Of a DNA stretch of 64,000 nt, positions 25,277-30,450 are shown piece after piece (the first letter of the stretch is position 1; the number at the start of each line of letters is the position of its first letter). Source of the DNA: a phage. The notes beneath the pieces are model-generated. The model had not been told where the DNA came from, searched no databases, and saw only the letters and a program-made list of their open reading frames with translations. Location of the stretch: sequence record PZ452591.1; one strand, written 5' to 3'. Made by a program: the position numbers and the translations under genes.

Positions 25277-25489
25277 TCATTTTTGTCCTGTATTTACTTT
25301 ATGCCGATGCACGGCCTTAACTTTATCAAGGTATTTTTCAAAATTTCGCAATCTAGTATAGTCTGCCGGAGATTGGTTGAGTGATACTTCTCGACGCAAA
25401 GCTGAAATGATATTTCCAACTTCCCTACGAATTTCATCTAATTGAAGAACAGTAAGATTGCGAAGTTGCTTTTCAGTTAATTGTAGCAT
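25277..25489 (-). CDS. hypothetical protein (rI.1 position)
   Basis: 70 aa ORF. Confidence 0.45.
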
Positions 25490-25531
25490 ATATACCCCTT
25501 TAGTTAGATAAACCTATTTATAACTTTTGCA

Positions 25532-26113
25532 CTAACCGAGCTTTTTAGTTAATTCATTCCAATGTTTTCTACACAAGGAAACATAAATTTCATCACCAAT
25601 ACAGATTTGATTACCTTCTTTAACTGGTGTTCCATCTTCCATTAATCGAGCTGTCATAATCGCTTTTTTGCCGCAATGACAAACTGCCTTTAGTTCAATA
25701 AGTTTATCTGCAATCGCTAAAAGTTCTTTAGAACCTTCAAACAATTTTCCAGCGAAATCAGTCCTTAATCCATAAGCCATAACAGGAACATTATATGTAT
25801 CAACAATTCGGCTCAATTGATGCACCTGTTCAGTTTTTAAAAACTGGGCTTCATCTACAAATACGCAATGAATATCTTTTTGTGCTTCAGCCCATTTATA
25901 GAACTCGAAAATATCCATATCATCTGTAATAATATTTGCTTCCTGCCTAATTCCAATGCGAGAAACGACTTCACAGACAGAATCGCGAGTATCAATAGCA
26001 GGCTTAAGAACTAATACACTCATTCCACGTTCTTTATAATTGTGCGCAGCAGTCAAAAGAGAAGCAGATTTTCCAGCATTCATTGCTGCATAAGTAAAAA
26101 TTAAACTCGCCAT
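25532..26113 (-). CDS. tk: thymidine kinase
   Basis: 193 aa; P-loop NAGKSASL; Zn-binding CHCG...C..C; matches T4 Tk. Confidence 0.9.
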   Translation of the reverse strand: MASLIFTYAAMNAGKSASLLTAAHNYKERGMSVLVLKPAIDTRDSVCEVVSRIGIRQEANIITDDMDIFEFYKWAEAQKDIHCVFVDEAQFLKTEQVHQLSRIVDTYNVPVMAYGLRTDFAGKLFEGSKELLAIADKLIELKAVCHCGKKAIMTARLMEDGTPVKEGNQICIGDEIYVSLCRKHWNELTKKLG

Positions 26114-26114
26114 C

Positions 26115-26303
26115 TTAGTCCTTAGTTAAATTTTCTAAATATGTTTCTAAATCATTTTCAGCTTTATCGATAGATTTTACTAATTCGTAATATGTTTCGG
26201 CATCTCCATAATCAGAAGATAATTCAAAAGACAAATCCTTTTCTAAACTAATAATTTCACCAACTAAAAATAATATTTCGTTCTTTTGTTCGCGAGTAAT
26301 CAT
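26115..26303 (-). CDS. small hypothetical protein (tk.1 position)
   Basis: 62 aa; paralogous to next ORF (REQK/KEQK..LF..), acidic. Confidence 0.45.
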   Translation of the reverse strand: MITREQKNEILFLVGEIISLEKDLSFELSSDYGDAETYYELVKSIDKAENDLETYLENLTKD

Positions 26304-26485
26304 AAGGAATTTATATAATCAATGAGTTCTTGTTCTTTATTATCGAATTCTTTAGAAAGTTCTTCGTACTCGTTTGCACTAAAAGGACCGCATTCATTAC
26401 AAACTTTTTCCAATTCACTATTTTTATCCATAACTTCGTGGATAAGAGAAAAGAGTTTATCTTTTTGTTCTTTGCTTAAACTCAT
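26300..26485 (-). CDS. small hypothetical protein (tk.2 position)
   Basis: 61 aa ORF. Confidence 0.45.
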   Translation of the reverse strand: MSLSKEQKDKLFSLIHEVMDKNSELEKVCNECGPFSANEYEELSKEFDNKEQELIDYINSL

Positions 26486-26655
26486 ATATTAATTTCCAAA
26501 AGTTTTAAAATAATTCGCTTTTGCTTAAATATTTCCACAGTTAAATGATCAGTATCTTTTTGACCAATTCCAATGGCAAAACCTTTATTAACAGCGAGTT
26601 CAATTAAATTATCAAGTTCACGTAACACTTCATATTGTAACTCAGAACTATTCAT
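26483..26655 (-). CDS. small hypothetical protein (57 aa, below track cutoff)
   Basis: ATG at 26653-26655 overlapping upstream stop; stop overlaps tk.2-like start. Confidence 0.35.
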
Positions 26656-26864
26656 TTTGGTTTACCTTCTTTAACGAAATCTGGATAAGGATAAAATCCC
26701 GAATAAAATCCTTCACCTTTATGATTGATGCATCCTTTATTCGAACAATAGCACCAATAATCGAAATCACAAGCCATTTCATCGTTGCATAAAGCAAAAA
26801 CAACCGGCCATTTACACTTTTCACAGTGGGCATTTTTAAGAATACTAGTTTGGCTCATAACCAT
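26652..26864 (-). CDS. cysteine-rich small protein (probable Zn-binding)
   Basis: 70 aa with CxxC pairs (CEKCKW, C..C, CYC, C). Confidence 0.45.
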   Translation of the reverse strand: MVMSQTSILKNAHCEKCKWPVVFALCNDEMACDFDYWCYCSNKGCINHKGEGFYSGFYPYPDFVKEGKPK

Positions 26865-27082
26865 GTCACCTTTAAGCAGTATTCTTCTACATGCTGTTTA
26901 CGACCTTTCTTATCAATAAAGGTATATTCAACGAATGTTCCAATGTAGTCTTTATCTACATCATGTGGACTATTAATTGGACATTTAGTACGGCAAATGC
27001 GTTCCCATTGACGAATAATTACTGCCTTATTCTTTGGGTCATACGGATGTGGATAATGTATATTCATAATAATGGTTCCCAA
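26855..27082 (-). CDS. small hypothetical protein upstream-overlapping partner of macro-domain gene
   Basis: 75 aa; 5' end overlaps 3' end of macro gene. Confidence 0.4.
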   Translation of the reverse strand: MGTIIMNIHYPHPYDPKNKAVIIRQWERICRTKCPINSPHDVDKDYIGTFVEYTFIDKKGRKQHVEEYCLKVTWL

Positions 27083-27531
27083 TCAACAATCACAATTTCT
27101 AATTTAGAGGAATATGTATCTAAAATCCCCTCAATAATATCCCAGTTCCCTTTACCTATGCCTGCACCAATCCTAGGCATATAGATTGTAGGTTTAATTA
27201 GTTTATTTTCACCAAACTCATTTAATTCTAACATACAATTCATTAAAGCGGAATACTCAAAATTTGGCCCTGGTTGAAATTGAGTATAAAGATTAAAGCA
27301 GTAAGCTTTATGAGTCCTAAAGTATTTTTCATAGACTGAATAAGAACCAAGTTTAGTTACATCACCCCATTCAGTCTGTAATTTATCAGCTTCCAAAATT
27401 TTAGGGAAAGCTTTAGTTAATTGACCTGCGACTCCAGCTTTCATCGTGTGAAAACAATTACATCCATGCGCAATATTTTTACCTTCAGCGAAAAGGGCGA
27501 CAATATCGCCCTTGATATATTTTACAATCAT
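27064..27531 (-). CDS. macro-domain (ADP-ribose binding/hydrolase fold) protein
   Basis: 155 aa; GDIVALFAEGKNIAHGCNCFHTMKAGVAGQL aligns to macro GDIT..DAIVNAAN..GGGVDGAI; TIYMPRIGAGIGKGNW aligns to SVAFPAISTGVYGYP. Confidence 0.6.
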   Translation of the reverse strand: MIVKYIKGDIVALFAEGKNIAHGCNCFHTMKAGVAGQLTKAFPKILEADKLQTEWGDVTKLGSYSVYEKYFRTHKAYCFNLYTQFQPGPNFEYSALMNCMLELNEFGENKLIKPTIYMPRIGAGIGKGNWDIIEGILDTYSSKLEIVIVDWEPLL

Positions 27532-27875
27532 CTAGTACTCAATCCTCGATTATAAGAATCTACCAAACGGTCAACCATTGAATGACAAGCGGCTTTATCT
27601 TTCTCCTCCGCAACTGAACATTCTAAGGTATTCCACTTTTTAGCATATCGTTTTAATAATGTATCGTTTTTGTATCTACTTGATTTATCTCTTTCTCCGT
27701 CTTTATATGCATATATTAATTTCTGTGCAAATTCAGCTTGACATGCTTTATTTTTCCCACAATAATCTGCCGCAGTGCGGTTTACATATTCTCTAATTTC
27801 AGTATATGATGTATCTGCTGACGCAGAAGCAGAAAATGAAATTAATCCTATACATAAAACCAAAATTTTAGTCAT
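27528..27875 (-). CDS. small secreted/periplasmic protein (signal peptide)
   Basis: 115 aa; N-terminal MTKILVLCIGLISFSASASA signal peptide. Confidence 0.5.
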   Translation of the reverse strand: MTKILVLCIGLISFSASASADTSYTEIREYVNRTAADYCGKNKACQAEFAQKLIYAYKDGERDKSSRYKNDTLLKRYAKKWNTLECSVAEEKDKAACHSMVDRLVDSYNRGLSTR

Positions 27876-28413
27876 TTACTATTTCCAAAAGTTTATTATT
27901 TTTAAGGTAATTAGCCTTTTCTAGGACTTCAGAAGCATATTTAGAACCAGCTTTAACATTCCATCCCGAATTATAAGAGGATATTGCTTTTCTTATATCG
28001 CCCTTATGTATATTTAACCAATAAGAAAGTTCAATGTACGCCCAGGAAGCTGAATTGGATCGTTTATTCAACATTCTTTTTATTTCAGCATCGGTCATAT
28101 TATAACCAAGTTCCTTAACTCTTGCTCGCATAGTAGGCAAATAATTTTGGAACATTCCATAAGCGTGATGCTTTGGTTTAGATTTTAAATTAACTCCGCC
28201 AGAGCTTTCTTGCCATAAAATAGCAGCCATTATATGACCTAATCCGCTCTTGTGGATATTTTTGTGTGTTTTATATTTTCCATCCTTAGAAAATTGTTCC
28301 CCGAATTGATACGCGTAACGCATGTTATCGAGTTGGACATTACTGAAAGTATGCTCGGAGCTATGTGCCATCATAGAAATGGCCAATAGACCAGCGAGTA
28401 GTGCTTTTCTCAT
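27868..28413 (-). CDS. secreted lytic transglycosylase (SLT domain)
   Basis: 181 aa; signal peptide; catalytic-type motif AAILWQESSGG. Confidence 0.65.
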   Translation of the reverse strand: MRKALLAGLLAISMMAHSSEHTFSNVQLDNMRYAYQFGEQFSKDGKYKTHKNIHKSGLGHIMAAILWQESSGGVNLKSKPKHHAYGMFQNYLPTMRARVKELGYNMTDAEIKRMLNKRSNSASWAYIELSYWLNIHKGDIRKAISSYNSGWNVKAGSKYASEVLEKANYLKNNKLLEIVND

Positions 28414-28420
28414 GCTTACC

Positions 28421-28882
28421 TCATTGAGTTTTAATTACTGCTTTAGAAGCCTTTCCTGGTAAACGGCGACTGTTGATAATTGCCATCCTACATTGAAGCG
28501 ACGGGTCTTTGAACTTCGCATTAGGTTTACAAACTGTAAATCCAAGCCAAAGATTTCCATCTGTGATTTCTAAACGTCCAGGACGATATTCAACCCCATC
28601 AATAAAATCCTCGTCAATGTCAGGACGCGGAGGCATACTCAGGAATTCATTAACTTCTAAAACATGGTCTTTTATTTTATGGAATAATTCAAAAACGTAT
28701 GTCTCATCAATCTCCCGTTGAATTGCGCGATCAAGAAGATGCTGAGAATATTTTAGATGAAACGATGAGACTCCTGCTGCTTTTGATGCCTCACGAATCT
28801 CATTGTTAATTTGACGAAACTCCGACTCAAAGTGACGACGAAGCTTATTTCGACGGATAAAAACTTCTGTGTTGATAGTCAT
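28421..28882 (-). CDS. regB: endoribonuclease RegB
   Basis: 153 aa; matches T4 RegB length and sequence as recalled. Confidence 0.8.
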   Translation of the reverse strand: MTINTEVFIRRNKLRRHFESEFRQINNEIREASKAAGVSSFHLKYSQHLLDRAIQREIDETYVFELFHKIKDHVLEVNEFLSMPPRPDIDEDFIDGVEYRPGRLEITDGNLWLGFTVCKPNAKFKDPSLQCRMAIINSRRLPGKASKAVIKTQ

Positions 28883-28907
28883 GTTATTCTCCTCTTAACT
28901 GATAGAA

Positions 28908-28941
28908 AAATTATACCACAGTCAAGAGGAAAAGTAAACAG
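28908..28941 (-). promoter_or_regulatory. T4-type early promoter upstream of regB
   Basis: GTTTAC (28934-28939), 18-nt spacer, TGGTATAAT (-10 at 28910-28915), about 28 nt from regB ATG. Confidence 0.65.
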
Positions 28942-29262
28942 TTATTCTTTAAATCTAATCAATTTATTCATAGACTTTGAAACTTCTGCACGAACCTCAT
29001 GTAGATTTTTGAGCTGCTCAAGACGCTGCGCATAGTAAGCAATTTCATCTTCTTCGAGACAGTCCTGTGAATCTTCTTTAAGATAACGCGCATAGTCCTG
29101 GAAAGCGTTACGAACTACTTCCTGGAAGTCATCAAGACTTTGAATTTTCTTAGGAGCAACAGATACACGACGAGGGGCAGTATAATACTCATAACCAAAC
29201 CCTGCGCTTAATTGAGCCATTAGTATTTTTCCTCTGGTTGGAACACTGCACGACAAGCCCAC
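28942..29262 (-). CDS. hypothetical protein (vs.3 position; start may be internal Met at 29218-29220)
   Basis: 106 aa track ORF. Confidence 0.4.
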
Positions 29263-29522
29263 ATACTGGCTTCTTTGAGTTTCGTTTTAGCAATAGTTAA
29301 CTGATCGAGGCTTTCAGCATAATTCTTCGCGAATTCACAGTCTTCACAATTATCTAGTGCTTCCCAGAATTCATCATATAAAGCATCAAAGATAAGCCCT
29401 AAACGAACTTCAGCATCTTTGATAGCATTCACTTTACTGATTTTATCGTCAGTATGTGGCTTATAACCTTTAATGTCTTCAATCATATTTGACTTCCTCA
29501 CCAGTACATAAATCGTATTCAA
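29220..29522 (-). CDS. hypothetical protein (vs.4 position)
   Basis: 100 aa track ORF. Confidence 0.4.
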
Positions 29523-29700
29523 CTAAACGAATAGGTTCATGAATGCCATATCCCTGAACAGAAATTTCTGTCGTAGGATAAATTCCATCAATATCACCCA
29601 TATTCCAGGATTCATTAAATTGTTGTTCGCCTGAATTACTAAACCACTCGGCGAAAGCATTTAGCACATCTTCAGAACCTTCAATAATTATCTTTGCCAT
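29479..29700 (-). CDS. hypothetical acidic protein (vs.5 position)
   Basis: 73 aa ORF. Confidence 0.4.
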   Translation of the reverse strand: MAKIIIEGSEDVLNAFAEWFSNSGEQQFNESWNMGDIDGIYPTTEISVQGYGIHEPIRLVEYDLCTGEEVKYD

Positions 29701-30062
29701 TACAAACTCTCGGTAAAGGTACGAGCGATAACGTCGCGCTGCTGTTCCGGAGTCAGAGAGTTAAAGCGAACTGCATAACCGGATACACGGATGGTCAGCT
29801 GCGGATATTTTTCCGGATGCTTAACTGCATCTTCCAGAGTTTCACGACGCAGAACGTTAACGTTCAGGTGTTGACCACCTTCAATTTTAACTGTAGGCTG
29901 TGGCTCAATTTCAATTTCACGGGCATGCAAACCATAGAAAATTTCTGGGTCTACAAAAGAGTCCTCTTTAAAGGTTTTAGAAACGATAATTCGTGCTTGA
30001 ATACCATCTTCAAAATAAATAGTGCCTTTGTGTGTGCCTTCAAGAATTTGATATGCTTTCAT
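29700..30062 (-). CDS. GrcA/YfiD-like autonomous glycyl radical cofactor
   Basis: 120 aa; glycyl radical motif RVSGYAVRF; C-terminal half matches E. coli GrcA as recalled; 3' half of gene visibly GC-richer than neighbours. Confidence 0.8.
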
Positions 30063-30069
30063 ATAAACC

Positions 30070-30450
30070 TCAATTAGAAAATAAATTTATCCAGGATTGT
30101 TCTTTAATTAAAAACGGCTCAGAATCATATGCCATTAAACTTTGGGTAATTAATCCTTTAAAAGGTCCATCAATAAATTCCATGGTAAAATATGGAATTT
30201 TATTCATTAGCCGTGCATTAGGAGCAGTGCACAAAACTCTGCATCCTTTGAATACACCTTTTTGTAATTTGTATTGCTTGGGATAAAATTCGCTTAAAAT
30301 GTTGTTATTTGCCAAAATTTCAAAATGATTCACCAATTTATTTTTAATAGTTTTTGGCGAAAAATAAAGATATTCGAAAAGCTGAGTGTCTGTCATCATT
30401 GCATTCCAATTACGAAAAACTGTGGACGAGTAATACCACCAATACAACAT
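30070..30450 (-). CDS. hypothetical protein (vs.7 position)
   Basis: 126 aa track ORF. Confidence 0.4.

Follow-up and report, generated by a model that had tools for sequence, protein, structure and literature searches.

The tk.4/adfM gene of a T-even phage encodes an ALC1-like macrodomain with a predicted glutamine-type active site

Bacterial defence by DarTG2, a toxin–antitoxin system, acts through the toxin DarT2, which ADP-ribosylates thymidines in single-stranded DNA and so blocks phage replication. DarTG2 resistance is kept by T2 and T4 lacking adfN and by T4 lacking adfA and adfN together, and because these mutants stay resistant a further anti-DarTG2 factor was predicted (PMC11825919). 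Such a factor has quite recently been reported: in a T4 transposon library grown on a DarTG2-expressing host, tk.4 was the single significant hit genome-wide, and a clean T4 tk.4 knockout was DarTG2-sensitive (bioRxiv 10.1101/2025.11.20.689424, a preprint of November 2025, not peer reviewed). The name adfM, for anti-DarT factor Macrodomain, was given to T4 tk.4 in the same study, which says of mechanism that enzymatic ADP-ribose removal from DNA ‘seems likely’, and nothing further, and in which the phenotype on record is that of the T4 G31-S32 allele only (10.1101/2025.11.20.689424). A second stand-alone phage macrodomain that counters DarTG2, gp104 of PhiKZ, carries the name AdfM too, in a Cell Reports paper demonstrating in vitro that it strips ADP-ribose off DNA modified by DarT2 (PMC13309987).

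Related chemistry has been described for cellular enzymes. SCO6735 of Streptomyces coelicolor (structure 5E3B) efficiently strips DarT-made thymidine ADP-ribose from DNA, both in vitro and in cells; it carries Gln85 at the position of the DarG lysine, and its Q85A and N27S mutants are inactive (PMC9411070). The distal ribose is held in place by the glutamine, and the attack is proposed to come from a water bound by the backbone (PMC9411070). Bt_1257, from Bacteroides, is placed in the SCO6735 subclass, whose members have a ‘mobile loop’ some five residues longer than that of DarG and TARG1, and TARG1 too removes dT-ADP-ribose (PMC9411070).

The window, by which we mean the whole 64,000-nucleotide stretch of phage DNA that was analysed (record PZ452591.1), encodes on the minus strand, at 27064..27531, the gene tk.4/adfM, whose product Tk.4 is a 155-aa stand-alone macrodomain protein of the ALC1-like class. 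It is equal in length to T4 Tk.4 (NP_049723) and identical to it at 153 of 155 residues (99%), while the match to T6 Tk.4 is complete (155/155); the Tk.4 of phage BYEP02 is likewise identical to that of the window. DNA identity over the region is 98.9% to T6 and stands at about 98% for numerous further Tequatrovirus genomes, T2 and RB14 among them. A check for a T4 homologue at this locus, which the first-pass annotation had proposed, has a clear answer: the T4 reference genome carries tk.3 (70 aa) and tk.4 (155 aa) at the same position, between tk.2 and vs, and the order vs, tk.4, tk.3 is the same in T4, T2 and T6. According to T6 and T2 annotation, vs and vs.1 lie upstream of tk.4, tk.3 adjoins it downstream, and tk.2, tk.1 and tk follow farther downstream. 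Both the tk.4 and the tk.3 ORFs were already in the T4 sequence record X04567, and the T4 RefSeq record, like a 2006 record of Aeromonas phage 25, notes an ‘A1pp phosphatase motif’ on Tk.4. A tblastn search of 50,697 phage records finds tk.4 homologues in 2813, mostly those of large myoviruses, a spread in line with a published survey that finds a macro domain in 41% of myoviruses (PMC9503650). In short, tk.4 next to tk.3 is what T-even phages normally have here; what was noticed is genuine but unremarkable, tk.4/adfM is already known, and T4 lacks neither gene.

The upstream neighbour in this packed chain is vs, the 115-aa valyl-tRNA synthetase modifier (27528..27875, minus strand; T2, T6 and T4 annotation). 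Its stop TGA and the start ATG of tk.4 share an ATGA at 27528..27531, and the stop TGA of tk.4 shares another with the start ATG of tk.3 at 27064..27067, both on the minus strand and read directly from the sequence; the position of the gene between vs and tk.3 and the ATGA overlaps are the same as those of tk.4/adfM in T4. Such overlaps run all along the chain from vs to tk.2. Vs and the next protein upstream are what had been described as a ‘signal-peptide protein’ and an ‘SLT’; T2, T6 and T4 annotation identifies these neighbours as Vs and Vs.1, and the N-terminus of Vs is indeed signal-peptide-like. In the T4 library study, no T4 gene was depleted more strongly in minimal medium than vs, directly upstream of tk.4 (10.1101/2025.11.20.689424).

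The first-pass annotation had counted two genes more in this interval than in T4, and had taken the macro gene and a 75-aa ORF to be the extras. The count holds and the choice of genes does not: the two are T4 tk.4 and tk.3 themselves (99% and 100% identity, at the same position), and the true additions relative to T4, found likewise in T2, T6 and RB14, are two ORFs between tk.2 and tk.3. One, like RB32ORF110c, is a 57-aa ORF of phrog_3452 (26482..26655, minus strand); the other, like RB32ORF111c, encodes a Cys-rich product of 70 aa that matches the Pfam ‘Phage zinc binding domain’ PF23895 (26652..26864, minus strand), both assigned from T6, T2 and RB14 annotation. The apparent novelty relative to T4 arose because the surplus ORFs were mislabelled. 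ATGA junctions are found at the ORF111c/ORF110c and ORF110c/tk.2 boundaries as well, and an internal ATG would allow one between tk.3 and ORF111c.

As for expression, tk.4 would be made within the tightly packed regB-vs.1-vs-tk.4-tk.3 gene chain, and early-infection expression is expected for the T4 region that holds it. A promoter and terminator scan of 25400..29400 returned 15 promoter-like sites where chance alone predicts 16.4, and therefore no dedicated tk.4 promoter can be claimed. The one that stands out lies just upstream of regB, at 28910..28938 on the minus strand, and is a good sigma-70-like site with TTTACT, a 17-nt spacer and a TG-extended TATAAT, which, judged from its sequence, could be the promoter of the regB-vs.1-vs-tk.4-tk.3 chain. 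Beyond regB, 28942..30450 (minus strand) holds ORFs that resemble vs.3 to vs.7 of T2 and T4 by length alone, among them a 363-nt ORF at 29700..30062 that has the length of vs.6; in the T6 record MH550421, regB is followed directly by e. On the basis of these ORF lengths the window would be a mosaic T-even genome and not T6 itself, despite its 100% T6-type Tk.4.

That the 155-aa protein is a macrodomain had been proposed from both halves of the macro-domain signature, and the motifs quoted are confirmed: GDI, IAHGCNCF..MKAGVAGQL and TIYMPRIGAGIGKGNW are all present. Family membership is borne out by four approaches that agree, namely Pfam, a profile search of the PDB, an AlphaFold model and Foldseek, and because they agree we place Tk.4 in the ALC1-like (TARG1/DarG/Poa1p) macrodomain class. 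The match to Pfam Macro (PF01661) scores 25.0 bits (E 1.9e-5), just above the gathering score of 22. A family profile built from 55 homologues of Tk.4 and run against the PDB finds Bt_1257 (1.2e-17), TARG1 (2.4e-15), Poa1p (5e-14) and SCO6735 (1.5e-13), with DarG structures at 1.6e-12 and 2.4e-10. The AF2 model (pLDDT 95.7, pTM 0.91) has the three-layer alpha/beta/alpha macro fold, and the top Foldseek ranks for it are TARG1 (E 9e-10), Poa1p (3e-9), DarG and Bt_1257; human TARG1/OARD1 and yeast Poa1p thus share the ALC1-like fold with the phage protein. Bt_1257 is the best match of Tk.4 by sequence and structure, and its closest solved relatives include the Gln-type SCO6735/Bt_1257 subclass, although these two are cellular, not phage, proteins and only about 19–29% identical to it.

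Our conservation counts refer to 120 aligned sequences, that is, the window protein and 119 retrieved cluster representatives. The first ligand-binding loop, aligned at codons H22–Q37 (HGCNCFHTMKAGVAGQ; 27421..27468, minus strand), contains H22, N25 and G33, conserved in 115, 119 and all 120 of these, and N25 falls in the column of DarG N22 (hhalign). The second, phosphate-binding loop, aligned at codons P119–W130 (PRIGAGIGKGNW; 27142..27177, minus strand), aligns with PRIGCGLDRLQW of TARG1 and PPLGVGNGGLDW of DarG; P119, I121, G122 and G124 are invariant (120/120) and W130 nearly so (117/120). Both Gly-rich loops expected of a macrodomain are therefore present, the GxG after strand 2 and the P-x-I-G-x-G phosphate loop, with Lys31 in the window where Gly is usual. 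Between them lies the catalytic-loop motif, codons N80-L-Y-T-Q84 (27280..27294, minus strand), located with hhalign, MAFFT and the 120-sequence alignment. Its Gln84, found in 120/120 sequences, shares a column with catalytic Lys80 of DarG and Lys84 of TARG1, and Gly126 stands in the column of TARG1 Asp125 (hhalign and MAFFT in both cases), so that the Lys84/Asp125 dyad of TARG1 reads Gln84/Gly126 in Tk.4, which is not of TARG1 type.

A glutamine at the lysine position of DarG and TARG1, together with a conserved asparagine (Q84 and N25), is what marks the SCO6735 subclass, and the predicted active site of Tk.4 is accordingly of the SCO6735 Gln pattern and not of the DarG/TARG1 Lys type. The equivalences of Q84 with SCO6735 Gln85 and of N25 with Asn27 are by transitivity through DarG K80 and N22 (PMC9411070). 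A Krischvirus orthologue of tk.4, that of phage ECD7 (L006:1501-1956; syntenic, 44% identity), has N-L-Y-T-K against the T-even N-L-Y-T-Q, and therefore the catalytic position switches between Lys and Gln within one orthologous phage gene family.

Taking all this together, we hold with a probability of roughly 0.8 that the 155-aa ORF is tk.4/adfM, an ALC1-like anti-DarTG2 macrodomain working by Gln84-type thymidine-ADP-ribose hydrolysis, and that Tk.3 is an unrelated neighbour. Tk.4 would shield the phage from the bacterial DarTG2 defence, the genetics being that of the T4 allele only, and for this reason the activity of the window’s K31-A32 allele is assumed. Its two Gly-rich loops would bind the ADP-ribose moiety; Gln84, presumably held by Asn25, would take the place of the lysine as in Streptomyces SCO6735; and hydrolysis of the thymidine–ribose bond would then restore normal DNA. 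By analogy with SCO6735, the chemistry is most likely Gln-positioned and water-mediated, as proposed for that enzyme, with the hydrolysis step our own inference. The anti-immunity role on which the first-pass annotation speculated, and the DarTG challenge it proposed, agree with the published T4 result.

Our reading, by the same analogy, is that Tk.4 would work like DarG, in erasing the thymidine mark made by DarT2, and yet it is no DarG, because it has Gln84 for Lys, no C-terminal domain and no adjacent darT. DarG of Thermus aquaticus and M. tuberculosis (PDB 5M31, 5M3E, 5M3I) is about 18–22% identical to Tk.4, and the catalytic Lys80 of DarG is Gln84 here. The PADLOC DarG model matches (E 1e-7) with Tk.4 covering positions 2–145 of 329, the macro half only, and the C-terminal DarT-binding domain of DarG is missing from the 155-aa protein; NCBIfam DarG (NF048014) scores it at 25.1 bits, far short of the equivalog cut-off of 250. 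No darT gene lies beside tk.4, whose neighbours are vs and tk.3. PhiKZ gp104 (L009:12517-13005) and Tk.4 share only about 20% identity (pairwise BLASTP E 0.018), and the chimallivirus protein, which is imported into the phage nucleus, is DarG-like with an F-P-T-K Lys motif, whereas Tk.4 is Gln-type. The two proteins called AdfM are from different ALC1-like branches, and were probably acquired independently.

Hydrolysis is better supported than each of the three other explanations that we have weighed. The first of these, which we consider distinctly unlikely, is that Tk.4 mainly binds DarT2 or its product, inhibiting or shielding stoichiometrically, with the Gln84 site a binding pocket and not a catalytic one. 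The loss to Gln of the lysine that is catalytic in DarG and TARG1 would suit such a protein, as would the literature, in which we found no enzymology on Tk.4 itself. Moreover, the dead mutants SCO6735 Q85A, DarG K80A and TARG1 K84A inhibit DarT in vitro on DNA, SCO6735 the most strongly, and since they can do so by direct interaction, protection might come about without hydrolysis (PMC9411070). However, that same source has SCO6735, with the same glutamine, as a fast dT-ADP-ribose hydrolase that is inactive as Q85A (PMC9411070); the almost full conservation of N25, Q84, G33, G122 and G124 fits an enzyme active site; and Tk.4 has no counterpart of the C-terminal domain with which DarG binds DarT.

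Very unlikely, in our view, is what the RefSeq product name implies, a Poa1p-like phosphatase or small-molecule hydrolase, with ADP-ribose-1''-phosphate, O-acetyl-ADP-ribose or the cyclic ADP-ribose messenger of Thoeris as substrate and the DarTG2 phenotype secondary, given that the sole experimental phenotype is DarTG2-specific (10.1101/2025.11.20.689424). Poa1p, an ADP-ribose-1''-phosphate phosphatase, carries Ser and not Gln at the aligned Q84 position. Of the residues mutated in the Poa1p structure series (His23, Ser30 and Phe152), His23 aligns with H22 of Tk.4 and Ser30 with T29, on a chain numbering offset of 3, and Thr29 is present in only 75/120 sequences. The T4 tRNA repair pathway (Pnk/Rnl1), to our knowledge, yields no ADP-ribose-1''-phosphate, which also counts against this explanation.

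Lastly, T-even phages encode three ADP-ribosyltransferases, and this could favour a Tk.4 that erases or tunes the phage’s own ADP-ribosylation (marks set on host proteins by Alt, ModA and ModB, or ModB RNAylation) or reverses host RNA ADP-ribosylation such as that by CmdTAC, an explanation that we regard as extremely improbable; Alt and Mod modify arginine, and macrodomains are not known to cleave that linkage. Nucleic-acid ADP-ribose can be a macrodomain substrate, and CmdTAC, which is directed against T-even phages, ADP-ribosylates mRNA, but these phages are CmdTAC-sensitive although they carry tk.4 (PMC11618068), and tk.4 was reported as a hit under the DarTG2 condition only (10.1101/2025.11.20.689424). 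In the CmdTAC paper, examined for any connection with macrodomains of phages, that term occurs only among the references (PMC11618068).

Hundreds of phage records of tk.4 homologues, for example NC_000866 and NC_054931, bear the RefSeq product name ‘phosphatase’, which seems to go back to the early ‘A1pp phosphatase motif’ note. That name is probably misleading for tk.4 homologues, in view of the phenotype on DarTG2 and of a hydrolase signature that is of Gln type.

What, then, of the small neighbour, which had been put forward as a functional ‘overlapping partner’ of the macro gene? A mechanical ORF of 75 aa (26855..27082, minus strand) does contain a real gene here, but it starts elsewhere: the T4, T2 and T6 records begin tk.3 (26855..27067, minus strand; Pfam DUF7202, phrog_2008) with the ATG at 27067, for a protein of 70 aa, and the window’s Tk.3 is identical to that of T4 (70/70). 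An overlap with tk.4 likewise exists, though as the 4-nt ATGA of the ATG at 27067 and not as the 19 nt that a TTG start at 27082 would give. Both the small ORF and the macro ORF are conserved genes and not chance ORFs, with homologues in 838 and 2813 phage records, respectively, and it is in this distribution (838 of 50,697 records for Tk.3) that the two come apart. Indeed, tk.3 is missing beside tk.4 in the Straboviridae genera Kanagawavirus, Krischvirus and Tulanevirus; the Phapecoctavirus ESCO5 has a Tk.3 at 81% identity with no macro gene within 2 kb; and in phage teqskov a Tk.3 that is 93% identical adjoins a Tk.4 that is only 57% identical. The T4 DarTG2 screen picked out tk.4 alone, not tk.3 (10.1101/2025.11.20.689424). 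Since ATGA junctions are general along the chain, the tk.4/tk.3 overlap is ordinary T-even packing and no sign of partnership. We have therefore rejected Tk.3 as a functional partner, on phyletic uncoupling, ESCO5, teqskov and the general ATGA overlaps, and regard it as an unrelated small gene packed beside tk.4, not an obligate partner. Searches of Tk.3 against the PDB, PADLOC and NCBIfam gave no matches.

Where the window does differ from T4 and T2 is at residues 31–32 of Tk.4, K-A here and G-S there. Of 15 nucleotide differences between the window tk.4 and that of T2, 10 fall within gene nucleotides 84–105 (22 nt; codons 29–35), at 27427..27448 on the minus strand, and give rise to K31-A32, whose codons occupy 27436..27441 (minus strand). 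The patch is common to 47 phage records, including those of T6, AR1, RB51, RB68, wV7 and PST, and from its sequence it looks like a small micro-mosaic recombination patch. Position 31 lies in the first ligand loop, aligned with DarG G28 (hhalign), and is Gly in 103 and Lys in 5 of the 120 sequences. One might go further and suppose that T-even AdfM is an independent recruitment from the Gln branch and not a captured DarG, that K31-A32 is adaptive, through substrate range or evasion of a counter-measure, and that the Gln/Lys switch of Krischvirus reflects an active site still diversifying in an arms race; as a whole we find this rather doubtful.

The discovery value of the locus is small, given the listing in X04567, the macro/A1pp notes that include the 2006 record, and the anti-DarTG2 role reported in 2025. 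Three small points of value are left: the glutamine at the catalytic position, which as read from the alignments would put T-even AdfM mechanistically with SCO6735 and apart from the DarG-like AdfM of PhiKZ; the probably misleading RefSeq name; and, in K31-A32, a natural variant of a ligand loop. If the adaptive reading of that variant were true, K31-A32 may serve against other DarT variants or against ADP-ribosylated RNA.
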